Translations under genes and position numbers: made by a program
DNA from: Squalus acanthias
Taxonomy: Eukaryota
NCBI GenBank assembly: GCA_030390025.1
Contig: CM059432.1
Location: 91,018,001 to 91,082,000 of the forward strand
Reading direction: 5' to 3'
DNA length: 64,000 nt
Notes under the pieces: generated by a model
Database searches by the model: none
What the model was told of the DNA's origin: nothing
What the model saw: only the letters and a program-made list of their open reading frames with translations
Shown here: piece after piece, positions 6,291 through 51,733 of the stretch
How the letters are laid out: every line of letters begins with the position of its first letter
Position numbering within the stretch: the stretch's first letter is position 1

Positions 6291-8125
6291 AGAGCTTCTA
6301 CAAGTATATAAAACGGAAGAGAGTAGCTAAAGTAAATGTTGGTCCCTTAGAGGATGAGACTGGGGAATTAATAATGGGAAACAAAGAAATGGCAGAGACT
6401 CTGAACAAATATTTTGTATTTGTCTTCACGATAGAAGACACTAAAAGCATCCTAATAATAGTGGAAAATCAAGGGGCAAAAGGGAGGGAGGAACTTAAAA
6501 CAATCACCATCACTAGAGAAAAAGTACTAGGCAAACTAATGGGACTAAAGGCTGACAAGTCCCCTGGACCTGATGGCCTGCATCCTAGGGTCTCAAAAGA
6601 AGTGGCTGCAGAGATGGATGCATTGGTTGTAATCTTCCAAAATTCCCTAGATTCTGAAAAGGTCCCAGCAGATTGGAAAACCACAAATGTAATGCCCCTA
6701 TTCGAGAAAGGAGGGAGACAGAAAGCAGGAAACTATAGGCCAGTTAGCCTAACATCTGTCATTAGGAAAATGCTGGAATCCATTATTAAGGAAGTAGTAG
6801 CAGGACATTTAGAAAATCATAATACAATCAAGCAGAGTCAACATGGTTTCATGAAAGGGAAATCGATTTTGACAAATTTATTAGGGCGAGTTCTTTGAGG
6901 ATGTAACGAACAGGGTGGATAAAGGGGAACCAGTAGATGTAGTGTATTTGGATTTCCAAAAGGCATTCGATAAGGTGCCACATAAAAGTTACTGCACAAG
7001 ATAAGAGCTCATGGTGTTGGGGTAATGTATTAGCATGGATAGAGGATTGGCTAACTAACAGAAAACAGAGAGTCGGGATAAATGGGTCATTTTCAGGTTG
7101 GCAAACTAAGTAGTGGGGTGCCACAGGGATCAGTGCTAGGGCCTCAACTATTTACAATCTATATTAATGACTCAGATGAAGGGACCAAATGTACCATAGC
7201 CAAATTTGCTGACGATACAAAGATAGGTGGGAAAGCAAGTTGTGAGGAGGACACAAAGAGTCTGCAAAGGTATATAGTTATGTTAAGTGAGTTGGAAAAA
7301 AATTGGCAGATGGAGTATAATGTGGGAAAATGTGAGGTTATCCACTTTGGTAGGAAGAATAGAAAAGCAAAATATTATTTAAATGGAGAGAGACTACAGA
7401 ATGCTGCGGTACAGAGGGATCTGGGTGTCCTCGTACATGAAACACAAAAAGTTAGCATGCAGGTACAGTAAGTAATTAGGAAGGCAAATGGAATGTTGGC
7501 CTTTATTGCAAGGGGAATGGAATATAAAAGTAGGGAAGTCTTGCTACAACTGTACAGGGAATTGGTGAGACCACACCTAGAGTACTGTGTACAGTTTTGG
7601 TCTCCTTATTTAAGGAGGGATATACTTGCATTGGAGGCAGTTCAGAGAAGGTTCACTAGGTTGATTCCTGAGTTGAAGGGGTTGTCTTATGAGGAAAGGT
7701 TGAGCAGGTTGGGCCTATACTCATTGGAGTTTAGAAGAATGAGAGGTGATCTTATTGAAACATAAGATTCTGAGGGGGCTTGACAGGGTAGATGCTGAGA
7801 GAATGTTTCCCCTCATGGGGGAATCTAGAACTAGGGGGCATAGTATCAGAATAAGGGGTCGCCCAGTTAAGATGGAGATGAGGAGGAATTTCTTCTCAGA
7901 GGGTCGTGAATCTTTGGAATTCTCTACCCCAGAGAGCTGTGGAGGCTGAGTCATTGAATATATTCAAGGCTGAGATAGACATATTTTTGAACTACAGGGG
8001 AGTCAAGGGTTATGGGGAGCGGGCAGAAAAGTGGAGTTGAGGCCAAGATCAGATCAACCATGATCTTATTGAATGGCGGCAGGGGCCGAATGGCCTACTC
8101 CTGCTCCTATTTCTTATGTTCTTAT
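6291..8125 (+). mobile_element. 5'-truncated CR1 LINE (ORF2 RT pseudogene plus 3' tail)
   Basis: Motifs [49 protein letters not shown] spread over frameshifted ORFs; tail ctcctatttcttatgttcttat. Confidence 0.97.
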
Positions 8126-17410: not shown

Positions 17411-18216
17411 GTTTTTCTTCAATTTCTTATACTTTTGCCTGTATTCTTAGCAACTGGATTTATCTAATTCCTTCTTAAGCTCTCACTCGGGTCTTCAAAA
17501 GTGGCAGAGCATCACAGCATACCCAGTTTTGTGATTGAAATATCAACCCATTTACTTTACAAAAGATGAACAAACATGTAAGTAATAGTCAGATATACTA
17601 TAATTATATATTTACATTAGACATCCTTTCACCTAACTCAAATGGACAAAATAACAAAAAGATTGCAACTTGAAGCTAATCCTTTGTAAATAACTTTTAA
17701 GTAATACTGTATTTCTTTTTCTAGAATTTCTTGTAACTGTGATATACCTAATTAATCCAAACGATTTCTTGGAAATTCAAACCAATTTTTCTTTTTTTCA
17801 GGAATTTCTTATTTGAGATTTTCAAGCTGATTCTTCGATTTGAATAGAACAACTATTTTCATAACCCAGAAAAACGTTACCAAGATGTCATGAATTTTGA
17901 ATATCTCACCTCTCAGATTTAAAAAGGAACTGTGTTAATATACAAGACAAGCTAATCACACAGCATTGATTAGGTTTGAATTATTCTTCTCTTCAGCTTA
18001 TAACTGCCAGAACTTGCAACATTGTTTTGAAATAAGCTTGGTTCATGAACTTCAGTCATTTTTTTAAACAACTGTAACTGAATTTAAAGGTACAACCACT
18101 ACATCAAAATTAGATTAAAATACCTCGGCCGCAAAATTCGACTCCTTAGTGCCGGTAGTTAAGGCTGGTTTCGAAAAAAATGGCGACTGCCTTGCTTCCT
18201 CCAACTTCCGGCGCAT

Positions 18217-19249
18217 AGAGGGAGGGGAGGAGGGCTCTCAGCAGGAGGCCTTACCCACCTAGGGTCTTCAGGAAGCACCTCTCCTACCTGCACCTAAGCC
18301 AGGAGCAGTGTGTTCGGTGGCTCCGCTTCACCAAGGAGGTGGTCACAGAACTCTGCCACTTCTTGGAACCAAACCTGCAGCCTCAGAGCAGGGCAATGAC
18401 AGCTCTGCCAATGGCCCTCAAGTTGACCATAGCCCTGAATGTTTTCACCAGCGGATCCTTCCAGGCTGAAACAGGTGACATAGCAAACATCCTGCAGTTC
18501 GCCGTCCATCGTTGCATTTGGGAGGTCACAGAGGCTCTCTACTCCAGGAGAAGGGACTTCATTGTCTTCTCTCTGAACAGAGAGAAGCAGGAGGAGCGCA
18601 CATATGGCTTTGCCAGGATATTGGCCTTCTCCATGATGCATGGCACCATCAATTGCACACACGTGGCTTTGTGAGCACCGCATATCAATGGTGAGATGTA
18701 CCGTAACCGCAAAAGGTACCGCTCACTTAATGTGCAGTTAGTGTGTGACCACGCCCAGCACATCATGATGGTGAATGCCCGGTACCCTGGCAGCGGTCAC
18801 GATGCCTTCACCCTGCGCCAGTCCATTGTGCCAGCAATCTTCCAGCCTCCACGTTAAACCTGTGGCTGCCAGGCGATGAGGGCTATCCGCTCTACACCTG
18901 GCTGATGACTACCCTCCGCAACCCCACCAATCGTGGCCAGCAATCATATAATGACAGCCATGCTGCCACGAGGAACCTCATCAAGCAGACCATCGGGGTA
19001 CTCAAGCAACGGTTCTGCTGCCTTGAGCGCTTGGGAGGAGCCCTCCAGTACACGCTGGGGCGGGTGTCCCAATTCGTGGTGGTCTGCTGCATCCTCCACA
19101 ACTTGGCCATCATGAGGTCGCAGTCCTTGCCACGACGGGTTCCGCAACCTCCTTGGGAGGAGGAGGAAGAGGAAGAGAGGGGGCAGCCTGCAAATACCTG
19201 TTCCGGACGGTCTGTCTGTGAGTGCATCATCAGATGCCGTTTCCCCTGA
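18217..19249 (+). pseudogene. Harbinger (HARBI1-like) DDE transposase pseudogene
   Basis: RRPYPPRVFR, SGSFQ, GTINCTHV (canonical D replaced by N), NRK.Y.SLNVQLVCD, YPGSGHDA, GDEGY, YNDSH..TR..IKQTIG.LKQRF (E replaced by K), CCILHN; stop at 18672 and a frameshift near 18860. Confidence 0.93.
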
Positions 19250-19418
19250 ATGCAACCCTAGATCCCCGTTGCTCAACACTTCCCCACCTTTCCATCTGTC
19301 TATCACGGAACATCATTGCGTTCTCTTGGTGACAATGCTGAAATGAAAGCCACCACAAAACAAACATTCCAAACATAATTTATGAATGATTGATTCCAAA
19401 ACTATATAGCAAAGTCAA

Positions 19419-21324
19419 CTAATCACCCTTGTGCATTCCCTTAGTGCCTGTCTGTCGTGTTCCTTTGACTGTCCTAGTGCTCCTATGAAGTGCTACCCCA
19501 GTGGCTGCAGCATGGTTGGTGGAAGGCTGCTGACTTTCAGAGGGAGAGACGGGAAATGGCCTTGGAGGATGACCATGAGCAGCTCTAGGCCAAGAAGGCC
19601 TGGCTCTAGACTGCACCATCTTGGCAAGGGCGGCCGCAGTCTGGACTGGCTTGCTGACGGGCAATAGCAAGGGCACTGGCAGAGTGGCAGTGGTGGAAGT
19701 ATGAATGCTGTCATCCTGAGAGAGGAAAGAAGGTTCGTGACCCACAGGGCCACTGTCACTCCCCCGGGGTGGTGCCTCAGCAACCCTAGTAATCTGTTGG
19801 AGGACAGATTGCTGGACTACTGCAAGACCCTGCAAGCCCCTTTCCACACTTGTAAACGCAGCCATGATGGCAGCAGTCTGAACTTGCGTGGCAGATAGCT
19901 GAGCCTGCATGACAGAAATCTGAACTTCCACTGCAGCACTCAGACATTGGGTCGCTTCCGCTTGTGCTGCAATGGAAGCTGAGACATTGCCCATCAGAAC
20001 CTGCATCATGGTTGGGTCCACAAGTGCTCTAATGGAGTTGTCCTGGAAATCATGGGCTCCAAGTTCTGCACAAAGCCCCGTGCAAAGTTGGAGCCGTACT
20101 CCTCCATGCTCCTTGACAATGATAACAGGCACCCTGCCAGGCCTGCCAATGCACCAAGCATTTCTGTGTGCATGGCCATCACCCTTCTTCTGAAGGTCGC
20201 CCCATGAAAGTCCTCATCTGTGTCCTCTGCAGCAGAACTCGTGTGCGACCTCACCTCACCCTCCGAGGAGCTGGTATTTGCGCTACCCTTTCCCCTTGCC
20301 CTGGCTTCAGGCCACTCCTGCCCGGTTACTCACCACTTGCAGATCCCGCCTCTATACTACCTTCTAAAGTACGCACAGTGCCTTTTCTGAACTGGTGCCT
20401 GGGAGTGTCAGATCGAGTGATGGTGTCTCTTCTTCTTCTTCAACACTCTCCTCCTCTTGCACAGGCTGGGCCAGTTGGAGTTCTTGGTTCTCTGAAAGGA
20501 GAAAGGTGCAAGGGTAGGGTTGTGGTGAGGGGAGGGGGGGAAAGCAAGATGTGCATGCTTACACCATCAGCAGCTTGTAAGTGAGAAGAGATTGTAGGAT
20601 GAGGGGGAAATGGGATGAGAGAAGGAGGATTTGGTATGAGCATACTGTCATCATCAATGCTTTCAGCCTCGCCGATCACCATGGCCTCAGTGACGGCCCC
20701 ACCAATGATATCCAGCACTGTCTCCTCCAGCTGGTTCAGGTTCTGTAGCCATGCCTGCCCCCCCCCCCGTCAGTTAGCTGCTGCTAGCCCCGGTTATGCG
20801 CCGCCTCGGCTGGCAAGAGAAATGGAAGTGTGTCAGTGAGTGTGCTGCTATGTGCCTGTCATGGTTGAATAGCCGGCATTGTGTGCAAGGTATGAGATGT
20901 TGGTGTGAGGCTTGCAGCAGTGGTAAGTGTGTGTGGGTGATGTAAAGCTATGATTGTGAGGTATGAGTCATGATGATTGACAGAGATTGTTGGTAGGTGA
21001 GTGATGGGGCTGTGGTGCATTGAGCAGTGTGTGAGGCTAGTGATGCAGTTGGTGGGATACGGCATTTGATGCTGCATTCACTGACCTTGACCACTCATGT
21101 GAGGTCATTAAACTTCTGGCGGCACTGCATCCAGGTCTTGGGGAAAGACTGCTGACACTGACCGCTCCAGCAATCTGCTCCCACTGCCTTCTTACAGTCA
21201 GTCTGGAGGACCTCCTGGCTCCCTGCGGGTAGAGGGCCTGTCTACTCATTTCAACCCCCTACACTAAGGCCTTCAGTGCTGCACTGGAGAACAAAGGTGC
21301 CCTTTCTCTGCCCTGTTTAACCAT
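19419..21324 (-). pseudogene. Harbinger Myb/SANT-like partner gene, multi-exon, disabled
   Basis: MVKQGRERAPLFSSAALKALV*; W.QIA.AV; donor gtcagt at 21085; last exon ending RSTRTVKGTRQTGTKGMHKGD. Confidence 0.85.
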
Positions 21325-21916
21325 AGGTACCTTCCACTTTCCTTTGCTACACTATCAATGAGGTGCTTCTTTCAGAAAGCACCTCCCCTTTAAGAAGTGC
21401 AGACTGCGTTTCACACTGCAGGCTACCTTTAAATAGAGAACACACTTCCCACGAAATTGGATCCCCTGCTGAGCGCTGAGCCAACCAGCAGTGTGTTCAG
21501 CGCTGGGCTTAGCTCTTCAATCATGTTAATTAGCAGGCAGCACGAAATCCCCATGCTGCCTGCATTACTTTCAATGGGCGTGGGCAAATTGCGCATCGTG
21601 ATCCCCGCGCCTGTTTTCGGGCCTTATCGAATTTAGTCCCCCTCATTTTTGTCACACCGACCCGTTAGAATTCTTTGAAGAAATGACAGGGAGGATCAAT
21701 AAAGGAAACACCGCAAATGTGGTTTACACGGAATTTCAAACAGCATTTGATATGGTACCACACAAGAGTCGTATGACAAGTATAAATAAATTATGGATAA
21801 TGTGGCCACATGAATAAAGCAAGGGTAGGGGTAAAAGAAAGTTTCTCCGACTGGAAAGATGTGGTGAGTGGTATTCCACAGAGCCACTCTTATTTACTAC
21901 ATACATAAAAGATATG

Positions 21917-24103
21917 GGGGGAGAAATTCGTGTTCGCCAGGAAAGTGAGTTAACAGCCGCTGAAAATGGCCACAACGCTAATGGGACAAAATTCATCTAG
22001 AGGGGCTGGAGATTGGTGGTGCAGTGCTTACCTTGCATGCAATGCCGCCCTGGTGGCATTAGTGGAGGCATCCGACCCGAAGTTCCCGTCCAGGAGCGAC
22101 ATTGCAGCTTCTCACAGCCTCTGGAAGCGAGGCTGTGGAGCTCACAAGGAATTGTGGGCAATGAAAAGGCCTGTGAATTAAAGGGGCCATGCACTCAGAA
22201 GTAATACAAATTAAAATCCAGTGAAACAATGCAGTTTTCAGCCCTTTCTGCTTTTCAAAAGAAAAGTTAACATTAAAACGAAGTACCAAATGTGAATATT
22301 CAGCTCTTAAAGCTGAATTCCCTTCCTAACCTCAAAAAGTGGGAAAAGTGTTTCAGCACTAACACAAATGGCTCAACAAGCCAGGGAAGGGGCACCCAGG
22401 GTCTCGCACACAGTACTCCAGCTTTGTGCAGGGGGTCAACACTGCAAGAGAGGTCCTCTACCTACAGGGGCCAGGAGGCCCTCCAGAAAGAAGGATGTGG
22501 GACTACATCACTGAGGCCGTCACTGCCAGCAGTGTCACCCCCAGGACCTGGCTCCAGTGCCCAAAGAAGCTTCATGACCTTCAACCACTGGTCAAGATCA
22601 GTGAATGCAACTTCAAAAGCCATCTCCTACCAACTGCACCACTAGCCTCACAGACTGCTCAATGTCTGACCCCCAATCACTCACCTACCAACAATCTACA
22701 CCAATCACGAGGCACATCTCCCATTCCTAGCCTCACCTCACCTGCCTTGGAGGAGATGGTGCAGGCCATTCTTGGCAGGGGCATGGCTGAGCCCTTGGCC
22801 AGCAGCTGAAAGGATACAAGATGCTGGTATTCTCATGCATTATCCTCCTTCTGGCATGCACCTCATGCTTTCCCACCCTCCCATCAACACAACTCCACCC
22901 TTGTGCCTTCCTCATTTCACACACCCAAGAAATGCAACCTACCCACCCAGTGGGTGATCAAGAAGAGGGAGAGGAGAGTGAAGAAGAACTAGAAGAAGAT
23001 TGATTTGACCCTCCCAGCCACCAGCTCCTCAAGGTCAACCAGCAAGGCCATTTGCAGTGTCCCCCACTGAAAGTCAGCAGCCTTCCACCAGCCATGCTGC
23101 AGCCACTGGGGTAGTACTGTGTGACATCAGTAGGATAGGCAAAGGCACACACAAGACAGTCACTAAGAGAATGCAAAAGGGCGAGGAGTTGATTTGTTGA
23201 TGTCATATTAGATGGATAGATGTATAAAGTTGGATTGGAAAGTTTGCTTTGTGGTGACTTTTATTTCAGCATCATGGCCAAGATGACGCTGTGATGGTCA
23301 GTAACAGAGGGAAGGTAAGGTGTGGAACTAATGTTGAAAGGGGAATTGGGGTTGTGGTCACTGGGACCGCAGGCGGATGATTCGATCCCGGATATCCCGG
23401 CCACAAAGGGGCTGTCTGGGTAGTATCCTTCCTTCTGCTTCCTCTTCTTCTGCTTCCTCCTCTTCTACTTCTTCCTCTATGGCTTCCTCCTTTTCTGTAT
23501 CTTATTCTTCCCTCTGCTGTAAATCTGAAATGACAGCATAAAATGCTGGAAATACTCAGCTGGTCAGGCAGCATCTCGACCTGAGACATGAACTCTGTTA
23601 TTCCCTCCACGGATGTTGCCTGACCTTCTGTCTTCTCAAAGGCCTTTATTTACCATCCAAGCCCTTGCAAGCATCCAACAGCACTCCCTACACACTTAAA
23701 AACTTCTCACATCTATTGCAGCAAGCCACTACAATTACATTTAAAAAGTAAAAAGTGCAAAAGCTTAAATACAAACTTACCTGAAAGATGTGTGTGTCCC
23801 TTTAAGAGGTGCTGACATCGCCACTGTCAGCCTGCTTGCACGCTGGGTTAACCTGGCATGCTTAGGACCCAGCGCTGAATTCAGCGCTAGAGTCGAAGTT
23901 TGCGTTTGTGACGTCAAGTGTTGCACACCGATTGACCTCACAAAGCCGCATTTTGTCCAGCATGGCGCTGCCAGTTACCGGCAGCGCAAAGGTAAGGACC
24001 AAAACGGCGGCCAGCGCGGGATCCATCAGCAGCTGGCGGAAAAGCGGCAGCCAGCGTTTTAGTGACGCTACAGAGTGGCGCTCAGGCCACGAATTTCTAG
24101 CCC
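21917..24103. mobile_element. Non-autonomous Harbinger, family D (multiply deleted Myb gene on + from 22368)
   Basis: Termini GGGGGAGAAATTCG ... CGAATTTCTAGCCC; flanks ATG/AAG; MAQQAREGAPRVSH, RTWLQCPKKLHDL; paralogous to 59097-60611. Confidence 0.9.
23525..23630. mobile_element. Penelope-like (pLTR-derived) inverted fragment inside the Harbinger
   Basis: aaatgctggaaatactcagctggtcaggcagcatc ... gatgttgcctgacc; same repeat as 34714-34797. Confidence 0.55.
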
Positions 24104-26632
24104 AAGGACTTAGGAATTGAGGGAACACAATGAGGTTAGCTAATGATACCGAACTGGGGATACAGATAATTGTGCTGAGGATTGTAAAAATCTGCAGGGG
24201 GGTATAGATAGGCTAGGAGGAGTGTCAGATAGTGCAGTTCAGTGTAGAAAAAATTGCAGTAGTACATTTTGAAGCTTAAAGAAACGAAAGGAATGCATTT
24301 TAAATTATAATCTTTTAAATAGAGTAGAGAGAGCTTGATTTGCAGATACCTATTAAAGCTAGATAAGACCATAATAAAATTTGTATCTGAAGGCCTAGGA
24401 TACAAAAACACAAAGGTATTGTTGAACTTGTTCAGGATCTTAGTTATTTCACAGTTGCATCATTGCGTTAAATTTTGGCCACCCCATTGTAGGAAGGATA
24501 TAAAAGAAATGGAAAAGGTGTAACAGATTCAACAGCATGTTGCCAGAGCTGAGAGATTGCAGTTATGAAGAGAGACGCAAGTTGCGAGGTCTTATTTTCA
24601 CGAGAGCGGAAGAGATTAGGCAACCCTAATATAGGTATTCAAGATTATGAAGGGTTATGGGCATATAACTAGGAATAGAATGTTTCCATTGGTTGACGAG
24701 AAAGTAACAAGAATTTAAGACAATCACAAAAAAAATTTAAGGGAAAGTTGGAAAAAAAATCTTTACACAGAGGGTGGTTAGAATGGAATTCTCTGTCACG
24801 AACTGTTACTGAAGCAGGGTCCATAAATTCCATAAATTCTCGGAAAAGGGAATAAAAAAAGAAAATACTTGAAAAAGAAAAATATTAACAGATTTTTAGG
24901 GGTGGCTGCATTTGTGAGATGAGACTGGCTGGTTCATGTGGAGAAAAACACCAGCGTAGACTTGATGGGATAAATGGCCAGTTTCTGTGTTTTAACATTC
25001 TTCTGGTTACTGCTCCTATTCAAAATGATTGTCTATATTTACTTCATGACCAAAGTATTTCATGGTATCCTTAGATCCAAAATTACTTTTCTAAGGACAG
25101 ACAACACACTGTTACAAAGTGCTTGTTCCCACTTTACAGAGGTCAAACTAGAATGACCAGGGGTAGCGGAGGGGGGATACGTTAACTCATAATCTCAAAG
25201 CAGCAAAGATTTTGGACCTGCTCCTGCAGTACATTGCACTAGGAATGTCTGACATTTTTGCATGCCTGCCTTAGTTTGGTGAGCTTTTTCATTATTGAGC
25301 AGGCTGCTAGATGGAATACCAGATTGAAAAAAGGTGTTTAATTCCTCAGTTGGATAGAACTGAAACTCAATTCAGTTGAATTACACATTCATCCTGCCAA
25401 TTATGAAGTAGCATTAATTGTAGTTAGAGAGAAGGCTGTAGTACAAGATAGCAAACAGCCTGGAAAAGGAAGATGGGAAAGAAAAAATGAAACAATTGCT
25501 CAACATTATTTACAGTAGGCTCAATGTTATTCAAAAAAAGAAAAGAATGATCGAATGGGAATTAATTTAATTAATAAAATTATACTAGAAGATAAACATA
25601 AGTTGATCTTAAGAACAAAGCAAATTTATCAAAGATAATGTTACACAGATTTTGAAAGGCATCTTTCTTAGCTGCTGTGGAATCCTTTTATAACTAGGGC
25701 CCTATTCAATTTGTAAAATTAAAATAGAAAAATCAAAGGATAATAAGTAAAGGCAGGTTTTTAGAACTTGCTGTGAAAAGAATAAAGCTTACTATGTGCA
25801 GCTTAAACAATCTGCAATTGTCAGAGTTGAAGATGGTCACCTTCTGAAAACAAATTCCAACGGTATAACATTTTTCTTTTGCAATAACAAAGAAACTCAA
25901 GTGACTCATCCTCGTGTATATTAATAATGATATTTAAAACTAATTTGCCATTCCTACTCAATCAAAAACAAAGGTGTCAATCAGTTGATATTATATAAAC
26001 AATATGGGCTAGAAATTTGACTCCGTAGCACCCGCTTTTTTCGGCGCTACTGATGCTGTTTTGTGATGAAAATAGTGTCCGTGCCATGTGCGCACACTTC
26101 TGGTGTGGGGCGTGCCAGACGTCATCTTGGTGAGGGCGGTAGAGTGGGCATTAGGAGCATGCGCCAGAAGTATGTTGAGTAGGCAAATTGTGATGTTAAT
26201 CAGCGCGCAACACTGATTTGACGCCAGCGCTGCCATTTTCGTCCTCAGCGCTGGAACTAACACTGAACATGCGCTTAGCAGCAGCACAGACCTCCCACCA
26301 GCAATATTTAAAGGGATCAGCAACCACTCTAAGGTTAGTTGCTAATTCATTTCTACTGGCTCTATGTAAGTTTGTGGAAGTGTTTGGAGCTTTCTAGAGT
26401 TGTTTAAACATGGTGAGGTGACAGGGAGTGGTGCTGCACGTGGAAAAGGCCTTGGTTCTGACTTCAAGGGTTCTGGTCAGACCACTTGCTCCCAGTCATG
26501 GGTGCTCCAGTTGTCATCCCCCTTGGCCTGCAACATGACAAGGAGATGGAGCAGAGGCTGCAAAGAAGAGAACAAGCTGCTCGCAGAGGGAGGAGGAGGA
26601 GGGGGGGAAAGGCTCTCAGCAGGAGACCTTAC

Positions 26633-29257
26633 TAGGGTTGCAAAGGGGTGGAAATTTTCCGGTAAATTTCCGGAAATTTTCCATGGGAAATTTAGCTTGG
26701 GAATTTTGCCCAAAAAAGCATATGCTAGTTTTTTTTTGTCTTTCTTTTTTTTTCACAGGTCCTCTCTTAAAATTACTAACAGAGATGGAATCTTAATTAT
26801 TAAGGAATTTCTTAATCAATATATGTTTATCTTCTTACTTGGCTTGTTTTAATAATTACAAGTTTTGTGTGTGACTGTGAACAAATGTGTCCTGATTGGT
26901 TGGATGAGTGGATGAGCGATTAGCTCCCTCTATTGGTGATGTAGTGTCGTGCGTGCACAGGTCATGCTTCCATCACATGGAGCATCAGGCAAAATTTACT
27001 CACCCTGGCCTGTTGCAATCGTGCTGATCGACCGCAGTTCGACACAGAGACGAATGCCCTTTATTTCTCTGCATAGAACAATGCCACATTTACCATCGGA
27101 TGTGTGGAAGCATTTTACCCCAGGCATTAAAGATGGAAAGACTGTGTACATGTGCAAACACTGTACAAAGCCATATGTAAAGAATGCCACAAAGATGCAG
27201 CAGCATTTATCCAAATGCAACAACTTCACTCAAAGCTCACAGCAGTCAGCCCAGAGTTCCTCTGCTTCCATTCAAGAAGATGATGGTTCACATTCAGCAT
27301 CAGGCTCCTTATCATCAGCAACTCCTGGCCCACTTGGAAGGTTCTTTGATACAATGGATAACCATAGCCAGAAGAATGCAGATGAGTGCCTTGCTCGAGC
27401 TGTGTATGCGACAGGCTCACCCCTCATGGTCACAGCCAATGTGTACTGGAAGAGATTTTTCAATGTTATTCGTCCTGCATACTGTCCTCCCACCAGACAT
27501 GCTTTGTCTACTTATTTGCTGGAGGCTGAGTATAACAGAGTCCAAGGAAAGCTCAGAGAAACAATAGAGATGGCAGACTGTGTTGCAGTTATCTCAGATG
27601 GGTGGTCAAATGTACGAGGGGAGGGCATCATAAACTACATCGTCTCCACTCCTCTCCCAGTGTTCTTCAAGAGCACAGACACGAAGGACAACAGACACAC
27701 AGGCACATACATTGCTGATGAGCTGAAAGCGGTCTTTAACGATCTTGGATCACAAAAGGTCTTTGCAGTAGTTACTGACAATGCTGCGAATATAAAGGCT
27801 GCTTGGGCTCAAGTGGAGGAGGCCTACCCTCATATTACATCTATTGGGTGCGCAGCTCATGGGCTCAACCTGCTCCTCAAGGACATCATGGGTTTGAGAA
27901 CCATGGAAACACTGTACAAGAGAACCAAGCAAGTTGTTAAGTATGTCAGGGGAAAACAGGTAGTTGCAGCAACCTACAACTCCAAGCAAACAACAAAGAA
28001 CAAGAACACCACACTGAAGCTGCCCAGCAACACTAGATGGGGTGGCATTGTCATAATGTACAACAGCCTTCTGGAGGGTAAGGAGTCGCCGCAAGAAATG
28101 GTAATATCCCAGTCTGGGGATATGGAAACCACCATCAAGAAAATACTGCTGGATGATGTGTTTTGGGAGAGAGTGGTTAGCAGCCTTAAACTACTCTCAC
28201 CAGTAGCATCTGCAATTGCTCAGATTGAAGGAGATGACGCTGTCTTGTCAGATGTTCTCAGGCTTTTTGCTGATTTAAAAGAACAAATCAGCATTGCCCT
28301 ACCCACATCCCTACTGCTCAAAGCAGAGGAGAAGGCAATTGTTCAATTCATACAGACGCGTCAAGAATTTTGTGTCAAGCCGATTCATGCTGCAGCATAC
28401 ATGCTGGACCCAAAGCATGTTGGGAGACCAATACTTTCTGGAGAACAGATCAACAGCGCTTACAATGTGATTTCTACCCTCTCACGCCACCTCAATCTGG
28501 ACGTGGGCAAAGTTCTGGGAAGTCTGGCAAAGTTCTCTACCAAGCAAGGTCTTTGGAATGGGGACGGGATATGGGAATCATGCAAGCATATCAGTGCACA
28601 TACCTGGTGGAAGGGACTTTGTGCATCTGAGGCCCTGTCACCCATTGCATCGGTGATACTCCAAATCCCACCTTCATCAGCGGCCTCTGAACGAAACTGG
28701 TCACTTTTTGGGAATACGCATACAAAGGTGCGCAACAGGTTGACTAACAAGAGAGTGGAGAAACTGGTGGCTATCCGGGCGAACCTACAACTTATTGAGC
28801 CAGATACAGAAGTGTCCACCACACAGCTAGACAGTGACACAGAGGAGGAAATGGACACGTCAGATCCAGAGTCAGGGAATCAGGAGGAGCAATGATGAGT
28901 AGAAGACTCAGAAGACTCATGAGTAGAAGACTCAAAGGGACAAAATAAGAACAAATTACAGGCTAAATAAGCTGACGCTCTTTTTATTTTATTTTAGATG
29001 GGTCTTTTTTGTGGGGGTTCAATAAAGTTCAAAATTATAACCTAAATAAAGTTTTGAAAGCCTGTTTTTATTTGTATGGAACAGTATGTCTATTTTGATG
29101 ACAAAGATAATATAAGGGTCAGAGACAAAAACCATCAGTGTGCAAAAAAACTCTAAATTCCCATAAATTCCCATAAATTCCCAAAATTCATATAAATTCC
29201 CGAAAATTCCCATGGAAAGTTTCCTCTTTTAAAAATTCCCAGAATTTTGCAACCATA
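26633..29257 (+). mobile_element. Full-length hAT DNA transposon (2625 bp)
   Basis: TIR TAGGGTTGCAAA / TTTGCAACCATA (1 mismatch); perfect 8-bp TSD GACCTTAC (26625-32, 29258-65); subterminal AAATT(T)CC repeats at both ends. Confidence 0.97.
27081..28895 (+). CDS. hAT transposase, 604 aa, uninterrupted (BED zinc finger, DUF659-type DDE core, C-terminal dimerisation domain)
   Basis: DVWKHF...CKHC...KMQQHLSKC; ISDGWS, VTDNAAN, CAAH, TRW, WW, SAASERNWS; AATAAA at 29021; no stop or frameshift. Confidence 0.93.
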   Translation: MPHLPSDVWKHFTPGIKDGKTVYMCKHCTKPYVKNATKMQQHLSKCNNFTQSSQQSAQSSSASIQEDDGSHSASGSLSSATPGPLGRFFDTMDNHSQKNADECLARAVYATGSPLMVTANVYWKRFFNVIRPAYCPPTRHALSTYLLEAEYNRVQGKLRETIEMADCVAVISDGWSNVRGEGIINYIVSTPLPVFFKSTDTKDNRHTGTYIADELKAVFNDLGSQKVFAVVTDNAANIKAAWAQVEEAYPHITSIGCAAHGLNLLLKDIMGLRTMETLYKRTKQVVKYVRGKQVVAATYNSKQTTKNKNTTLKLPSNTRWGGIVIMYNSLLEGKESPQEMVISQSGDMETTIKKILLDDVFWERVVSSLKLLSPVASAIAQIEGDDAVLSDVLRLFADLKEQISIALPTSLLLKAEEKAIVQFIQTRQEFCVKPIHAAAYMLDPKHVGRPILSGEQINSAYNVISTLSRHLNLDVGKVLGSLAKFSTKQGLWNGDGIWESCKHISAHTWWKGLCASEALSPIASVILQIPPSSAASERNWSLFGNTHTKVRNRLTNKRVEKLVAIRANLQLIEPDTEVSTTQLDSDTEEEMDTSDPESGNQEEQ

Positions 29258-29599
29258 GACCTTACCCACCTAGGATTTTCCGAGAGCAATTCTCTTACCT
29301 CAGTCTGAGCCAGGAGCAGTGTCAGAGGCATCTGTGCTTTATGAAGGAGGTGCTCACAGAACTCTGCCACCTCTTGCAACCAGACCTGCAGCCTCACACC
29401 AGGGCAAGGACAGTGCTGCCAATGGCTGTGAAGGTGACTGTGGCCCTGAATTTCCTCATGTCGGGATCCTTCCGGTCTGGAGCAGTGACATCTGTAACAT
29501 CGCCCAGTTCACCATCCACTGCTGCGTAAGAGAGGTGACAGACTCTCTTTATGTCAGGAGAGGGGACTTCATTGTCTTCTCTCTGACCAGAGAGAAGAC

Positions 29600-31251
29600 A
29601 TGGGCGGCAGCAGTCTGGGCTGGCTGGTTGACAGGCAACAGCAAGGGAACTGGCAGAGTGGCATTGGTGGGAGGATGAACGCTGTCATCCTGAGAGAGGA
29701 TTCGTGCTCCATGGAGCCACTGCCACTCCCCTGGAGCGGTGCCCAGCATTCCTAGCCATCTGTTGGAGGACAGATTCCTGGACTGCTGTGATAACCTGCA
29801 AGCCCCTTTCCACACTGGTAAATGCAGCCACAATGGCAGCAGTCTGAGCTTGCATGATAGAAGTCTGAGCTTCCACTGCAGCCCTCAGACGTTGGGTGGC
29901 TTCTGCTTGTGCTACAATGGAAGCTGAGATATCAGCCATCAGACACTGCATTATGGATGAGTTCACAAGTGCGCTAATGGTGGAAGTCCTGGGCTCCAAT
30001 CTCTTCACAAAGCCCTGTGCAAGGTTGGTGCCGGACTCCTCCATGCTCCTTGACATTGCACTCAGACTTTCTGGCAGGCCTGCCAATGCACCAAGCATTT
30101 CGTTGTGCATACCCATCAGCATTCTTCTGTAGGCCGCCCCATCGAAGTCCTCATCTGAGTCCTCTACCACAGAACTCGTGTGTGACCTCGCCCTCCAGAG
30201 AACTGGCATCAGTACTACCCTTTTCCCCTGCCCTGGCTGCAGCCCACTCGTGCCAGTGACTCACCACATGCAGATCCCGCGTCTAAGCAAGCCTCTAAAC
30301 TCCCGCATTGCCAGTATCTGAGCTGGTGGCTGCGAGAGTCAGATCAAGCGACGGTGTTTCTTCTTCATAATCACTCTCCTCTCCCTCATCTTCTTGCACC
30401 ACTGGCTGGGCAGGTTGGATTTCTTGGGTCTCTGAAATGAGAAAGGCACAAGGGTAGGCTTGTGGTGAGGGGAAGGGGGGAAAGCAAGAGGTGCATGCTT
30501 TCACAACGAGCAGCTTGTAAATCAGAGGAGATTGTGTGAAGCAGGGGGGATGTGGGATGTGAGAAGGAAGATACCGGCATCTTTTATTCTTTCAGCCCTG
30601 CTGCTGACCACGGGCTCAGCGATGTCCCTCCAAGAATGGCCAGCACCATCTCCTTCATGGAGGTCAGGTTATGCAGGCACGCCTGTCCCTCGCTGGTTAG
30701 GTCCTGCTGGCGCCGGTTGTGAACCACCTTTTCCTGCAAGAGAAAGGGAAGTGTGTCAGTGACTATGGTGCAATGTGTTTGGGTGATATGCCTGTCATGG
30801 TTGAATAGCTGGCAGTCTGTGCAAGCTATGAGTTGTGGATGTGAGGCTTGCAGCAGTGATGAGTGTGTGAGGGTGAGGTGAAGCTATGATTGTGAGGAAT
30901 GAGTCATGTTTGGTAGAGACTGTTGGTGGGTGAGTGATAGGAATGTGGTGCATTGAACAGTGTGTGAGGCTAGTGGTGCAGATACTGGGATATGGCTTTT
31001 TAAGATGAATTTATTGATATTGACCACTCGTGTGAGATCATTAAACTTCTTCCTGCACTGTGTCCAGGTCCTCGGGACTAAACTTGCTGGCATTCACCAC
31101 AGCAGCCATCTGCTCCCATTGGACTTTATACTATTGGCTGGAGGGCCTCCTGTCCCCCTGTGGAAACAGCACCTTTCTCCTCAAGTTGATCTCCTGCACC
31201 AAGGCCTCCAGTGCAATACCTAGGTGCACGCTCTCTCCCCTGTTATGACAT
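29600..31251 (-). pseudogene. Harbinger Myb/SANT-like partner gene, disabled and 3'-truncated
   Basis: MS*QGRERAPR; PRTWTQCRKKFNDLTRVV; last exon EDSDEDFDGAAYRR...AQAEATQRL homologous to 19419-20254. Confidence 0.85.
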
Positions 31252-31544
31252 AATTTTTCTTTTCAACTCCTCTCACTCTCTTCCCCAGCTGCTGCAGGCA
31301 GAATGCATGTCCCCTTTAAGAGGTGCAGACTGCCTTTAAGTAGTACAGGCTAGCTTTAATTGGTGCCAGATCTGCACGAACTCGAGCCCCCTGCTGAGCG
31401 TTCAGCCACTCAGCAGCGCGAAGTTTGCATGCTGCCTGCATTCCTTTGAATGGGTGCAGGGTGATCGCGCATCACGATTCCCGTGCCTGTTTTCGGGGGC
31501 TAACGAATTTCTAGACCTATCTGTTTTACCATTTTGCTCTCCAT

Positions 31545-31915
31545 TTCCTATCTGGAAGCCAGTAAGCCTGGGCGCAGTTCTGCAGCAGCAGTAGCCCTCT
31601 GCTACTTTGTCCTACTGGCCATTCTCACATATGAGCCTCAGCAATAAATATTAGTGCGCTATTTGTCATAGGAATATACCTGCTCATTTCATCTGCAATC
31701 AATATATGTGAACTACTAGCAGCGTTACTGGATTGCAGCCGGAAATAGAATGACTAACCATTTCTTCCCTCCATAGCCCTATGGTAGAACTGCACTACTG
31801 CCTTGGGTAAGGTCAGCTAACTCAGCACAGGGCAGGTAAAAAACCTGCAGCCTTGCTGGTCAGGTCAGTAAGCTGTAGTTCACACCAAACAGTCCATTTA
31901 CCTAATTAGCCATTG
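31545..31915 (-). mobile_element. Old degraded SINE-like repeat
   Basis: Minus-strand ctgtgctgagttagctgacc and gaggctcatatgtgagaatggcca; a related fragment lies at about 49190-49275. Confidence 0.45.
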
Positions 31916-32611
31916 GTTAGTTAAGACAATGGAGATTATTTTCGTTCAACCCGGACACTAGTCAGGTAGTCTGCACTTTGGGTGCTCTCTGCCTGGCATG
32001 ACCTGAACCTGCCTGTATTTCTGGGGTCAGATCATTTACATAGGCCAGGCATTCACCAGCCCAGGTCTGCCACCTAGCAAGGACTAGCACCTAGAAGCAG
32101 GGAAGGAAAGGCTCTGCTTCTGCAGGCCTAAGAGGCCTTTCAGCAAAGGTAATGACTGCCGGTTCTGGATCCTTCTGACTGTTGTCAAAAATGTTGTCCG
32201 ATTTTTTTTTATAACTCTACCTTCTTGCTGCCTGCCCTTCTCAGATCTTACAATCGAAGCAGGACTGGGGACAGCTTCTAAGCTCGAGTTGTCCTGAGCA
32301 CTGCTGGGAAAGAGCAACTGTCCAACAAAGTGGGAGCAAAATGAGACTGTAAAACACTGTTGCCTCATTTGCATTGGATTACCATGCTTACATCTGATGT
32401 AGGTGCAAGCACTTCACCTCAGGGAAATCCCAGGGTAATGCAAAAAGCACAAAGATCCAGCATCACAGGACTGTCCTTTTTTCCTCCACTTTGCAGAAAT
32501 GAACTGAGTGTTCCCCAGGCACAAACCAGAGGAATAGCCCCCACAATAACTTTAAATCCATTATCAGAACACCTTAGCAGCCGTACTGAGGTGAATTGTT
32601 TTATATTTTTT

Positions 32612-33385
32612 TTATTCATTCATGGGATGTGGGCGTCGCTGGCAAGGCCAGCATTTATTGCCCATCCCTAGTTGCCCTTGAGAAGGTGGTGGTGAGCTGC
32701 CTTCTTGAACCGCTGCAGTCCATGTGGTGAAGGTACTCCCACAGTGCTGTTAGGGAGGGAGTTCCAGGATTTTGACCCAGCGACGATGAAGGAACGGCGA
32801 TATACTTCCAAGTCAGGATGCTGTGTGACTTGGAGGGGAACTTGGAGGTGGTGGTGTTCCCATGCGCCTGCTGCCCTTGTCCTTCTAGGTGGTAGAGGTC
32901 GCGGGTTTGGGAGGTGCTGCCGAAGAAGCCTTGGCGAGTTGCTGCAGTGCATCTTGTAGATGGTACACACTGCAGCCACGGTACGCCGGTGGTGGAGGGA
33001 GTGAATGTTTAAGGTGGTGGATGGGGTGCCAATCAAGCGGGCTGCTTTGTCTTGGATGGTGTCGAGCTTCTTGAGTGTTGATGGAGCTGCACTCATCCAG
33101 GCAAGTGGAGAGTATTCCATCACACTCCTGACTTGTGCCTTGTAGATGGTGGAAAGGCTTTGGGGAGTCAGGAGGTGAGACACTCGCTGCAGAATACCTA
33201 GCCTCTGACCTGCTCTTGTTGCCACAGTATTTATGTGGCTGGTCCAGTTAAGTTTCTGGTCAATGGTGACCCCCAGGATGTTGATGGTGGGGGATTCGGC
33301 GATGATAATGCCGTTGAATGTCAAGGGGCGGTGGTGCCACACTCGGTCAAATGCTGCCTTGATGTCAAGGGCAGTCACTCTCAAC
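32612..33385 (-). mobile_element. CR1-Zenon-like LINE 3' end with an internal deletion
   Basis: ALDIKAAFDRVWH fused directly to PLTFNG; LGVTIDQKLNW..HI; YKAQVRSVMEY..LAW; SLHHRR; WNSLP; intact 3' tail. Confidence 0.88.
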
Positions 33386-34194
33386 ACATTAATAATGTAA
33401 ACTTCATAATACAAAGAAGTACAATCCACATTTGTGACAAAGTATGGACAATATTATAGTTCAGATAAATTTTCTTAACCTTTGATTTTTATATAATATT
33501 GGTCTTTTTTTTAAAAACAAAAGCACTTTCAGATCTGAATTCAGATCATCAGTTATAGGCTGCAATATAAAATGATCATTACAGCTCGCCCCAGTATGGA
33601 GGAACAATAGGGGTCCTTTACTCCAGTTGGAGTAAATATTCTGTATATATGCGCATATATTGCAGAGGATGTGCATCTACATTTTAAAATGCACCGCACG
33701 CATACAGTAACCTTGGTAACAAACTGTCAGCTGGAATAATACACTTGGGGGAGGGGGAGTTTTGTAAAAGGTAACAATTTAAGAATTGTGAGATTTCATA
33801 TCAAATTTTAAAACATTGGCTCTCAAAAGTCCCCCCTATTCAAGTACATTAGTTGTATAACAACAGCTGGAGGTACTTAACTCCATGTATATTGTGTAAT
33901 GTGATCTGTCTGACTCCCTCCTACGTACTATAGATCTGCTTGGCTGATGCCTCAGTTCTGTTGTGCTGGAACAAGTGTGCACCATATATTTTATACGTGG
34001 AAATCAGTACTTTCAACTGACATTATAAAGTTATTGTCACTTTGCAAGCAACTTTTCCTGCAACACCTTATTTTTGGTTGCTGGTGCAACAGTTTAAGGT
34101 TTTTACTACCATCTTCTCTTTCAAAAATCTAGCATTCATTCCATCAGCAGACCTTTATCCCCATATAGATCTAGAATATGTACCCTTTCCACCC

Positions 34195-34655
34195 ATTCCC
34201 TTTACCCATCATCCTGTGCTCATTGACGTACAGTGGCTCCTGGTCCGGCAAGGCCTCGATTTTAAAATTCTCATCCTTGTTTTCAAATCCGTCCATGGCC
34301 TCACCCCTCCCTATCTCTGTAACCTTCACCAGCCCTACAACCCTCCAAGATCTCTGTGTTTTTCCAATTCTGGCCTCTTGCGCAGCTCCGATTTTCATCG
34401 CTCCACCATTGGTGGCCGTGCCTTCAGCTGTCTAAGCCCTAAGCTTTGGAATTCCCTCAGTTAACCTCTCTGCCTCTCTACCTCTCTCTCGTCCTTTAAG
34501 ACGCTACTTAAAACCTACCTCTTTGACCAAGTCCTAATATCTCCATAATTATGTGGCTTGGTGTAAAGTTTGTTTGATAACACTCCTGTTAACGCCTTGG
34601 GATGTTTTACTATGATGAAGGCACTATACAAATGCAATTTTTTATTGTTGTTGTT
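34195..34655 (+). mobile_element. L2 LINE 3' end
   Basis: WL.VRQ.LDFKIL, GGRAFS..PKLWNSL, FKTLLKTYLF; tail gccttggga...ctatacaaatgcaa. Confidence 0.9.
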
Positions 34656-34713
34656 CCATACACTATCCATGTGTTATGAGGGATAGCGATTACTCATTGC
34701 AGTAATCTCTTTA

Positions 34714-34797
34714 ATAAAAACAGAAAATGCTGGAAACACGCAGCAGGTCAGGCAGCATTGGAGGAAAGAAAAACAGTGTTCACGTTTCAGGTTGATG
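34714..34797 (-). mobile_element. Penelope-like fragment
   Basis: aaaaacagaaaatgctggaaacacgcagcaggtcaggcagcat...cgtttcagg; matches 23525-23630. Confidence 0.55.
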
Positions 34798-35018
34798 ACT
34801 CCAGGAATTAATCTGGCCACTGCTGTGAGCAACCCAGGAGAAAAATCATGATGCTATTAAAAAAGTTGTGTATTGTTTTTCATTTTCTTTGCACACTATT
34901 GTTTATTAGTTGTAAAAAATATTGGAGATGGGGAAAAAGGCCGTTTGACTGGGCGGGGAGATGGGAGGTCATGCGATAAAAAATTCTTGAAAACATCCAA
35001 CCAGAGTTGGCAACCCTC
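34798..35018. mobile_element. Non-autonomous hAT-like element, one end only
   Basis: Ends in GAGTTGGCAACCCT (reverse complement AGGGTTGCCAAC), similar to the TAGGGTTGC terminus of the full-length hAT. Confidence 0.55.
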
Positions 35019-35360
35019 ACTTTGGTAAGCAAAGCTTCTGATTTAGGTTAAGTATCTCTCCCATATTGATTAACAGAGCTCTTATTACTGAACTGTGAAT
35101 TCAGTCTCTATTTTGATCTCTGGTATAATTGTCTCCAACAAATAATTTCAAGACTTCTGCAAACAGCTTTCGCAATGATTAACTTCCAAAAGATCTATTT
35201 TTAACTCCAGTGTAAACCAACTATTTAGGAATCTCAATAGTTGCTTTTACCAGAATAATGATTCAAGCAACTTTCGAGTTAACATAAAAGATTGTTGTAG
35301 CTTGTTTCCTGAATAAATTAAACAGTATTTCATCCATTAATCCTTCTAAAGAGAGTCCAC

Positions 35361-36086
35361 GGGGCGATCTTGACCTTTGGGCAGCCGACTGACAGAGTGC
35401 GCCAGGCGGCTGTTCATACCGGCGGCGAAGAGGCAGCTGCAAATTGGAGGCCCCGGCCTCATCTGAATTTGACAGGCGAGTTGTGGATGCCAATGCAGCT
35501 CGCTGGTCCTTGACTTCAGGAATCTCAGCTGATGCCACCAGATGCCTGCAGATAGGTCCTCGGAGGGGGGCGGAATAAGACGGCGAGATGGGGCAAGCCT
35601 GGGCCCAAAGAATTTTTGTGGAGCCAGGATAACTCCTGATCCTTCCTACTCCACAAAAAGCCAATTTAAAAAAATGTTTCTGTCCACAGGAACAGGAGTA
35701 GGTCATTCAGCCCCTAGAGCCTGTTAAGCCATTCAATTAGATCATGGCTGATCTGTACCTTAACTCCATCTACCCACCTTGGTTCCATGTCCCTTAATAC
35801 CCTTGCCTAACAAAAGTCTATCATTCTCAGGTTTCAAACTTCCCTTTGCCAATATGTTCCTTAAATTTGCAATCCGGATCCAAAATACGTCATCAGGCCC
35901 CTGATTTATATGGGAAAGAGGCCTACCACTAGTTTCAGGCACGAGCTTCAGCCACCCAGTGGTAGGCCCTTGTGAAAGTCGTAGTAAGACGATCGTTTGG
36001 GTTAACAGGGCAGTAAAGCCTCCAACAACATTTTTAGGCCCTTACTGCCCCATCACTGCTGATTTTCCCAAGTGAAAATTGGCCCC
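35361..36086. mobile_element. Degraded Harbinger-type MITE containing a CR1 3' fragment
   Basis: GGGGCGATCTT ... AAAATTGGCCCC termini, flanks CAC/TAC, GC-rich interior. Confidence 0.5.
35688..35840 (-). mobile_element. CR1 3' fragment
   Basis: aggaacaggagtaggtcattcagccc...gatcatggctgatc, as in the tails at 57828 and 62438. Confidence 0.85.
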
Positions 36087-50990: not shown

Positions 50991-51733
50991 CTAATTTGGC
51001 AAGGGGATGGGCACCAGGATGTAGTATTAGATAGGAGAAACAAGGTGCACAAAGATTGAGAAAGACAGATAGCACTAGAGTAAGAAATAGTACGGTATTA
51101 GGTGGGGTCAGACTAAGAGAGAATTCAAGAAGGTCTAAGATAGGTTTACATTGCACGTGTGTGAATGCACGATGTGTGGTAAATAAGGTTGGTGAGCTGC
51201 AGGCGCAAATAGACACATGGGAATATGATGTCGTGGCGATAACGGAGACCTGGCTCAAAAAAGGGCAGGATCGGGTACTAAATATTCCTGGATATAAGGT
51301 GTTCAGGAAAGATAGGAAAGGAAAGAAGGGAGGTGGGGTGGCAGTATTGATTAAGGAAAATATTACAGTGCTGGAGAGAGAGGATGTCCTGGAGGGGTCA
51401 AGGACAGAATCTATTTGGTTAGAGTTGAGAAAAATTAGAGGTGCCATTACACTACTAGGTGTATTCTATAGGCCGCCAACTAGTGGGAAGGATATAGAGG
51501 AGCAAATTTGTAGGGAAATTACAGAGAGGTACAAGAACTATAGAGTAGTGATAATGGGGGACTTCAACTATCCTAATATAGACTGGGACAGTAATAGTGT
51601 AAACGGCAGAGAGGGGGGAAGAATTTCTGAAGTGTGTTCAGGAGAACTTTCTTGATCAGTATGTTTCCAGCCCAACGAGGAAGGAGGCATTGCTGGATCT
51701 GGTTCTGGGAATGAGGTGGGTCAAGTAGAGTAA

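Follow-up and report, generated by a model that had tools for sequence, protein, structure and literature searches.

Does an uninterrupted transposase frame mean that a transposon can still move? The question is raised by a hAT element at positions 26633–29257 of the 64-kb stretch of shark DNA analyzed here (the window), which an earlier note had described as structurally complete and possibly active, with an intact transposase. Our results make it very probable that this is a young, full-length hAT copy of a recently amplified family, likely crippled, and that the family consensus is the likely active form.

The element and its insertion site

The element is full length, 2,625 bp with both ends present, and lies within an older Harbinger element. 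The features are as follows.

26006..31517: internally deleted Harbinger with 12-bp terminal inverted repeats (TIRs) and TAT on both sides, host of the hAT insertion
26625..26632: left target-site duplication (TSD), 8 bp, GACCTTAC, single at the empty paralogous site near 18246
26633..26644, + strand: left TIR, 12 bp
26650..26707: left subterminal repeats of the GGAAATTT type, partly palindromic
26895..26936, − strand: two inverted CCAAT boxes (26895 and 26932), possible promoter
27057..27076, + strand: pyrimidine tract with a terminal AG, 4 bases 5′ of the ATG
27081..28895, + strand: transposase ORF, 604 aa, with zf-BED (residues 6–45), DUF659, the RNase H core (137–284), and the hAT dimerisation region (506–569)
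29021..29050, + strand: two AATAAA polyadenylation signals (29021 and 29045)
29155..29243: right subterminal repeats, 10-bp units of the AAATTCCCAT type
29246..29257, − strand: right TIR, mismatched at TIR position 3 (29255)
29258..29265: right TSD, 8 bp

In the 64 kb, GACCTTAC occurs just twice on the + strand, at the two flanks of the element, and once on the − strand, at 31807; identity of two 8-mers by chance has a probability of 1.5e-5. The flanks, minus the element and one TSD, align to a paralog at 18221–18587 with 78% identity over 369 bp (E 5e-77), which provides the empty site. The hAT element disrupts a Harbinger transposase ORF on the + strand, the other Harbinger ORF lying on the − strand, and a paralog ORF (18749–19246) matches DDE_Tnp_4 at E 2e-13. 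The left junction of the Harbinger is present also in contigs of the public runs X12 and X16. The hAT element entered this dead Harbinger by cut-and-paste transposition, duplicating 8 bp of the target. Excision of hAT elements proceeds via hairpins on the flanking DNA. The Harbinger ORFs of the window are broken and no second hAT was found in the 64 kb, in keeping with the earlier claim that this is its sole unbroken DNA-transposon ORF; Rfam gave no match in 23000–36000.

The size, the 12-bp TIRs, the 8-bp TSD, the empty paralogous site and the subterminal repeats at both ends all agree with the hAT superfamily, for which the available part of PMC3942097 gives 2.5–5 kb, TIRs of 10–25 bp and an 8-bp TSD. 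The two TIRs agree at 11 of 12 bases, as the earlier note had counted, and its perfect TSD, subterminal arrays and polyadenylation signal are likewise in place. The mismatched base at 29255 is probably private to the window copy, because the X1 contig ceases to fit at 29254 and continues with 38 different letters; we infer the family letter there, the position being absent from the difference rows listed. The right-array unit at 29155 is missing from the X1 and X2 contigs. The left subterminal repeats are putative binding sites of the BED finger, by analogy with Hermes as described in part of PMC10368747. The CCAAT-like boxes reported near 26892 do exist, as two inverted boxes, but do not exceed chance significantly (2 observed versus about 0.6 expected per 300 bp). 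The AG at 27076 is a possible splice acceptor for a 5′ UTR intron; no donor of 7/9 or better was found in 26760–27076.

An upstream in-frame ATG at 26964 would give a protein of 643 aa, a form that we rejected because the homologues begin at the 27081 ATG. The 604-codon ORF holds every motif that had been read in it: a BED finger (C25, C28, H42, C46; PF02892 at 20.7 bits against a cut-off of 20.6), the triad D173 (27597), D233 (27777) and E537 (28689), C257xxH260, and R319-W320. In hAT transposases an RNase H triad of this kind is divided by an insertion domain. PF04937 matches at E 2e-29 and PF05699, in the C-terminal dimerisation region, at 2.4e-9. The predicted model has a pLDDT of 77, and each of the 11 Foldseek matches listed among ranks 1–12 is a Hermes chain, with E from 2e-12 to 1e-10 and TM about 0.5; ESM Atlas returned DUF659/hAT clusters only. 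The element is a genuine hAT DNA transposon of the BED plus DUF659 type with the Hermes fold, and membership of a multi-copy hAT family is likewise supported. DUF659 may be linked with hAT19 or Tag1. None of the terms DUF659, hAT19 and Tag1 occurs in PMC8097297.

Hermes of the housefly (PDB 4d1q, 8sjd, 8edg; best E 2e-12) resembles the shark transposase in its BED finger, DDE triad, CxxH, RW and length of about 610 aa, and, from the part of PMC10368747 available, in short imperfect TIRs, asymmetric subterminal repeats and the 8-bp TSD. The two differ in that identity is 16–18%, alignable from D233 onward, the shark core is of the DUF659 type, its TIRs are 12 bp versus 17 bp, and its target GACCTTAC falls outside the nTnnnnAn preference of Hermes. 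Based on fold and motifs, BED fingers would engage the subterminal repeats, an RNase H DDE core would cut at the TIR tips, and integration would proceed with an 8-bp stagger, as in Hermes.

Condition of the window copy

The window copy differs from the family in public runs at 23 of 2,388 bases, about 1%, in agreement with the recent insertion proposed earlier. This comparison was made base by base for 4 of the 24 listed runs (X1, X2, X12 and X16), X1 covering 28951–29254 of the element only, with a gap at 28458–28525. Among the difference rows listed (40 of 271), 26 lie within the element, and in 19 of these X2, X12 and X16 stand jointly against the window; two of the eight differences of X2 contig 29 fall outside the rows listed. 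Fourteen of the 19 private changes are coding, 10 non-synonymous and 4 synonymous against 77% non-synonymous sites (p = 0.53 for neutrality; dN/dS 0.73), a test of low power at n = 14. Between species the changes number 1 non-synonymous and 3 synonymous, and the contrast with the private changes is not significant (p 0.25). The private changes are consistent with neutral decay. Nor does the open frame point to selection, because in 59% of simulations an ORF of this length withstands 14 random substitutions without closing.

Ten amino-acid changes are private to this copy: R3H, L117V, I219F, M238I, A282T, V323I, L337P, A341V, E595D and E599G. In an alignment of 100 homologues the family residue is the commonest at all eight changed positions in the folded protein: R3 in 73/73, L117 in 93/98, I219 in 96/98, M238 in 95/100, A282 in 89/100, V323 in 84/98, L337 in 98/99 and A341 in 87/98. 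At 28090, for instance, X2, X12 and X16 all have T, which gives L337 in the family. The earlier note had named private substitutions at conserved residues (e.g. in KESPQEM) as a sign against its own reading, and L337P is such a substitution. Its ORF "without lesions" is accordingly free of stops and frameshifts, but not of amino-acid changes, and its intact, active transposase finds no support in this copy, given the private substitutions and the neutral ratio.

After landing, the copy would have mutated free of selection with its frame open by chance, and the loss of near-invariant residues and probably of one TIR base would leave a weakened or dead source of transposase. Against the crippled reading, every catalytic residue is retained, and V323I, L117V and M238I are conservative; at position 238 isoleucine occurs in 3 of 100 homologues and Hermes has V. 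L337P lies near the start of helix 335–343 in the predicted model. Proline is tolerable near a helix start. The TIRs of Hermes, too, are imperfect by nature (PMC10368747, in part).

That the window copy is itself autonomous and currently active is improbable. It has an open ORF, the complete DDE, CxxH, RW and BED set, a perfect TSD and both ends, as an autonomous element should, but its conserved residues depart from the family (L337P, I219F, M238I and R3H among the ten changes), and 19 private base changes at a neutral ratio speak against it. Moreover, an active master would leave near-identical daughters, and no run listed carries more than 73% of its words, a view limited by contigs that drop rare variants. 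That the private differences arose in assembly, the true copy being identical to the consensus, we consider very improbable: the 19 differences were read from the assembled sequence, but the X2 flank contig is identical to the window at 171/171 bases, and the differences are all substitutions, 4/19 of CpG type, with no frameshift. A domesticated host gene with its ORF maintained by selection can practically be dismissed; the ORF is open and a sister clade appears domesticated, but TIRs and TSD are intact rather than lost, there are many copies in relatives rather than one, the ratio is neutral (dN/dS 0.73) rather than purifying, and the location is inside another transposon.

The very probable reading, a crippled copy of a recent family, bears on the use of the transposase as a vertebrate tool, which had been proposed for this ORF. 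Because the window copy is probably crippled, the family consensus, likely the form once active, rather than the window ORF is the tool candidate. Buster candidates were mined from genomes in like manner, and five were chosen with 7–22 intact, highly similar copies of ages near zero (PMC12637253 and PMC4890040, in the parts available); unlike these, the shark copy is 1% diverged and mutated. Tol2, Tgf2, TcBuster and the newer Buster tools belong to the same superfamily and are set against the shark element by description only.

Age, abundance and origin of the family

Eighteen of the 24 runs listed carry 65–73% of 266 sampled words and none carries more, which corresponds to 1.0–1.4% divergence. 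The flank distance between the window and X12 is 59/1,046, or 5.6%, from one 1,046-bp contig; that to X16 is 66/2,625. Against half of these distances, 23/2,388 gives Poisson p 4e-10 for X12 and p 0.11 for X16. On these few loci, the insertion postdates the split from organism F and is of about the same age as that from organism H. In X12 and X16 the summed depth of the element is about 10,000-fold that of the single-copy flank, compared with about 50-fold in X2; such depth is not copy number, and short contigs inflate it several-fold. On the best reading, the family underwent strong and recent amplification in related sharks, with copies numbering roughly in the thousands in two species. A burst specific to F and H versus B is not claimed, as contig size and low coverage distort depth ratios. 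Older copies exist in X12 and X16, because their longest pieces in the element are 6–10% from the window, long contig pieces being biased toward diverged copies. No contig joint across the element was found among the 15 of 572 joints listed, and none of the contig pieces listed bridges a junction of the element.

Among the protein homologues listed (120 of 165 plus 120 of 274 matches), none exceeds 78% identity. Teleost hATs of Paramormyrops (XP_072564792), Oreochromis (XP_025754532), Trematomus (XP_033988379), cyprinids and Silurus are 65–74% identical to the shark transposase and share its domains and length; they differ in forming a separate clade (100/100), multi-copy in teleosts and known here from proteins alone. 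The sister group of the shark transposase is instead a euteleost protein (support 92/94), a 571-aa salmonid form (XP_013988342) and forms of about 597 aa in Centroberyx, gadiforms and percomorphs. Its salmonid forms are 73–75% identical to the shark protein, the BED finger is kept, and the percomorph gene L001 likewise has an AG 4 bases before the ATG. The first catalytic D, however, is replaced in every named member aligned, CxxH, RW or E is eroded, there are one or two genes per species among the matches listed, and no terminal repeats were found in L001. Judged from its sequence, this gene is apparently domesticated and catalytically eroded.

How the family came to sharks has two answers. 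That it entered them, and crossed between shark lineages, by horizontal transfer as a recent invader has about an even chance of being right. The X2 and X12/X16 versions differ at about 5 sites listed, some 0.25% (word shares 0.71 versus 0.65–0.66), where by hand arithmetic neutral descent would predict about 44 changes, whereas window and X12 flank stand 5.6% apart; the relationships of the runs' organisms are known from flank distance alone, and the X12 distance from its single contig. The transposase is 70–75% identical to teleost proteins and branches within them. The AU test rejects a clade made up of teleosts alone (p 0.012), the group having been chosen after the first tree, with 4 rows assumed teleost; the careful tree has 22 rows, and the first, of 61 rows, is a quick version only. 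A host exon in the window is only 40–46% identical to full-length teleost matches, far below the transposase, as a control that is a single, fast-evolving exon. Four-fold sites against L001 are unsaturated (61/145 identical, K2P 1.13), and the sister lineage is 97% identical between Paramormyrops and Oreochromis. Cartilaginous-fish and tetrapod names are absent among the 240 matches listed, with the reservation that repeats are frequently masked from annotation. The 6–10% diverged pieces and slow shark evolution (PMC5381603, in part) count against transfer.

Alternatively, the family may descend vertically from the jawed-vertebrate ancestor through repeated bursts, with the mobile and domesticated teleost clades as ancient paralogues; we hold this possible, yet unlikely. 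The diverged copies in X12 and X16 support it, and the shark branch, short in the 22-row tree (0.12), is consistent with slow host evolution. Near-identical families in sharks 5.6% apart are left unexplained by it. Vertical persistence would span some 400 million years or more. Within genomes DNA transposons evolve neutrally, which makes persistence at 70–75% identity unlikely (PMC7070016, in part).

Scanning metagenomes with the transposase protein gave no relative in 64 stretches, and with the alignment relatives in 24 of 242; no full element with ends was found among three of these relatives checked for inverted repeats, and 0 of 66 viral contigs carried a relative. Tentatively, the whole may be drawn together as an aquatic hAT lineage that reached several shark lineages in one recent horizontal wave, made thousands of full-length copies in some of them, has a competent consensus, and is the nearest mobile kin of the euteleost gene, domesticated early in those fishes and retained ever since.

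Significance of the family

The copy itself is ordinary, young decaying hATs being abundant in vertebrate genomes, and the family, which belongs to the well-known hAT superfamily, is of modest importance. No description of the family or of the euteleost gene was found in the open literature, Repbase, Dfam, subscription journals and supplements lying outside the search. A 2017 review, for which the elephant shark genome was the sole source, describes few elements there beyond non-LTR retrotransposons (PMC5381603, in part), whereas here a full-length DNA transposon is seemingly abundant in certain shark species. Vertebrate hATs that are active have been called rare (PMC4890040, in part). Ray-finned fishes are involved in 93.7% of inferred vertebrate transfers (PMC7070016, in part), and a link to sharks would therefore widen the known pattern. 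The sister relation makes the origin of the domesticated fish gene testable. If the horizontal wave is true, the family would show the states before and after domestication side by side, a rare pairing, would document a transfer in which sharks took part, and would supply a transposase of the DUF659 type as a vector candidate.

A hAT insertion in an older transposon

The window carries a hAT transposon lodged within an older Harbinger-type element, among the following features.

26633-29257: hAT element, 2,625 bp, bounded by two GACCTTAC copies (8-bp TSD)
12-bp TIRs of the hAT element: 11 of 12 bases agree, the sole mismatch being TIR position 3 (29255)
26650-26707 and 29155-29243: subterminal repeat arrays
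27081-28895: transposase ORF, 604 aa, with zf-BED, DUF659 and hAT dimerisation region
26006-31517: host Harbinger-type element, with 12-bp TIRs and TAT at either side
18000-21641, 21917-24103, 26006-31517 and about 59096-60259: Harbinger-type copies related to one another (69-86% alike), at least four in number
1482-2056: last coding exon, with its AATAAA, of a host gene for a conserved, long coiled-coil protein
6293-8125, 51035-57002, 57833-59096 and 62437-63998: LINE retrotransposon fragments with endonuclease and RT matches, 69-86% alike

All testable hAT features, under a definition taken from the available text of PMC3942097, are found in the element. The BED ligands, D173, D233, C257xxH260, R319-W320 and E537 claimed in the earlier note are all in place; the CCAAT boxes it reported are present too, at a frequency not above chance. 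The AlphaFold model of the transposase (pLDDT 77) matches Hermes chains (E 2e-12 to 1e-10); ISCth4 follows in the structure comparison as the next family, at E 6e-3. When the element and one TSD are excised in silico, the flanks align over the junction with a paralog at 18221-18587 (78% over 369 bp), and the rejoined flanks form a single reading frame. The arrangement is that of a single insertion with an 8-bp duplication, and the encoded protein is Hermes-like.

We take the interrupted element to be a Harbinger from the DDE_Tnp_4 Pfam match, found in the paralog's downstream ORF, and the 3-bp duplication. Compared with the paralog it has lost about 1 kb, which is still present there at 18588-19624. 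Since its left junction is present in single-copy contigs of the sequencing runs X12 and X16, the host element predates the splits from both organisms. The Harbinger-type copies of the window lie in both orientations, some internally deleted, and a frame at 29685-30260 (-) is still open over 191 codons.

At 27057-27076 a pyrimidine tract with AG lies exactly 4 bases 5′ of the ATG, as it does in the percomorph gene locus L001 (805-844). The shared spacing hints at a 5′ UTR intron conserved in the two; a search for its splice donor found none. In the proteins P0009, P0037 and P0060, read-through extensions rich in F/L/S occur at the place matching this tract. A T-rich tract with terminal CAG at 26726-26758, 125 bp inside the element's left end, resembles another splice acceptor, one that could capture host transcripts. 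Similar CCGGAAAATTT subterminal repeats occur at L010:2290-2360, in a frameshifted distant relative (37% aa), which suggests that the motif is conserved in this hAT lineage.

As for the coiled-coil gene, exon 1482-1946 is 92% identical in Heptranchias, 69-86% in other sharks and 40-46% in full-length teleost matches, which identifies the genome around the element as that of a shark. Its product has 1,600-1,900 aa in sharks, gar-like and eel-like fishes and axolotl, under inconsistent database names.

Age, abundance and origin of the family

The family was sampled through 24 listed public runs with 266 words from the element. Twenty runs hold the element, words being found under nine organism labels and in one run without label; 18 of the 24 hold 65-73% of the words, and none more, a share equivalent to 1.0-1.4% divergence from this copy. 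Contigs of four runs were compared with window 24600-32600. Those of X2 match the flank at 171/171 bases, and its long element contigs differ at 23 of 2,388 bases and by one 10-bp unit, so that this copy stands 0.96% (95% interval 0.61-1.44) from the X2 version; the earlier note's view of a real hAT, recently inserted, is borne out. Orthologous flanks are 5.6% (59/1,046) distant in X12 and 2.5% (66/2,625) in X16. A comparison of flank with element distances therefore makes the insertion more recent than the divergence from the X12 organism (p 4e-10); its age is indistinguishable from that of the divergence from the X16 organism (p 0.11).

Summed contig depth, which is not a copy number and is read as an order of magnitude only, is 8e4-1.3e5 for the element versus 8.7 for the flank in X12, 1.5-2.2e5 versus 16-18 in X16, and 76-146 versus about 2 in X2. 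The rise spans the entire element, not its ends alone. On that reading the family would number on the order of thousands in the species of X12 and X16, and at least tens in X2. Joints in X16 contigs skip 27228-27829, 27556-27677 and 27567-27671, marking putative internally deleted derivatives in that organism.

Among the matches listed, the closest proteins are teleost (65-75% identity), and the 240 listed protein matches include no cartilaginous-fish names. A careful tree built on 22 proteins places the shark protein as sister (92/94) to a group of salmonid, Centroberyx, gadiform and percomorph proteins; next to these two stands a clade of mobile teleost transposases, and a tree with 61 rows has the same topology. 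The AU test rejects an all-teleost clade (p 0.012), the group being one defined after the first tree and including 4 unnamed rows. The sister clade (P0006, P0013, P0022, P0024-P0050 and others; L001:845-2611) is BED-finger and hAT-derived. All its named members have lost the first catalytic D, and CxxH, RW or E is eroded; lengths are 571 aa in salmonids and about 597 aa in Centroberyx, gadiforms and percomorphs. Judged by sequence, the clade is probably one domesticated gene. NCBI calls two members (Solea, Anabas) angiopoietin-1, a hint of a shared locus.

There is about an even chance that the family moved horizontally, involving sharks. The shark-teleost relation argues for it through the tree, the AU test and four-fold sites (K2P 1.13 against L001, a figure for the element alone). 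So do the family versions of X2 and X12/X16, which differ at about 5 listed sites where neutral master descent since the X12 split predicts about 44 (2,388 x (2.82% - 0.96%), hand arithmetic). However, the X12 distance is carried by one flank contig, the site count covers 40 of 271 difference rows, and X12 and X16 also contain older copies (6-10% diverged). Evolution in sharks is slow as well, according to the available text of PMC5381603. Among the teleost transposases of the sister lineage, those of Paramormyrops (P0004) and Oreochromis (P0133) are 97.4% identical over 613 residues, with Trematomus at 91%; recent horizontal transfer between distant teleosts is probable there.

Probable decay of this copy

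Forty of 271 difference rows are visible, 26 of them within the element, and they cover 13/13, 2/2 and, for the third contig, 6/8 of the X2 contigs' differences. The window differs from X2, X12 and X16 jointly in 19 of the 26, from X12 and X16 alone in 4 and from X2 alone in 1, 2 being mixed. The X1 contig agrees up to 29254 and then has 38 non-matching letters, suggesting a TIR mismatch (29255) private to this copy, as well as further insertion sites.

Ten of the 14 private coding changes are non-synonymous and 4 synonymous, a ratio that fits no selection (77% N sites, p 0.53, dN/dS 0.73). Eight of the changes fall in the folded part, and at each of these positions the family letter gives the residue that is commonest among 100 homologues; conservation is high at L337 (98/99), I219 (96/98), M238 (95/100) and R3 (73/73). 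In simulation, an ORF of equal length stayed stop-free after 14 random substitutions in 59% of 4,000 trials. The transposase called intact in the earlier note does not deserve the word, with private non-synonymous changes at conserved residues and an N:S expected without selection. The counter-view that it still works can cite complete catalytic residues, several conservative changes and a V at the position of M238 in Hermes; nevertheless, this is probably not a working copy.

By analogy with Hermes, in the available text of PMC10368747, BED fingers would bind the subterminal repeats, arranged differently at each end, the TIR tips would be taken into the DDE active sites of a single dimer, and the TSD would result from integration with a stagger. 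Because transposase acts in trans, the landed copy would be unselected and decay, as its neutrality implies; the available text of PMC7070016 describes action in trans and landed copies free of selection.

Active vertebrate hATs are called rare in the available text of PMC4890040. The tool candidates of PMC12637253 were selected for having 7-22 intact, highly similar copies, and consensus sequences were the basis of their construction; taken by itself, this copy would fall short of that standard. hAT19 is mentioned, without defining features, in the available text of PMC9004415. Searches of open-access literature listed no description of the shark family or the candidate domesticated fish gene; the family may already be named elsewhere (e.g. 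Repbase, Dfam). Its sister relation to the candidate domesticated gene is a worthwhile lead, as are its abundance and near-identity across sharks.
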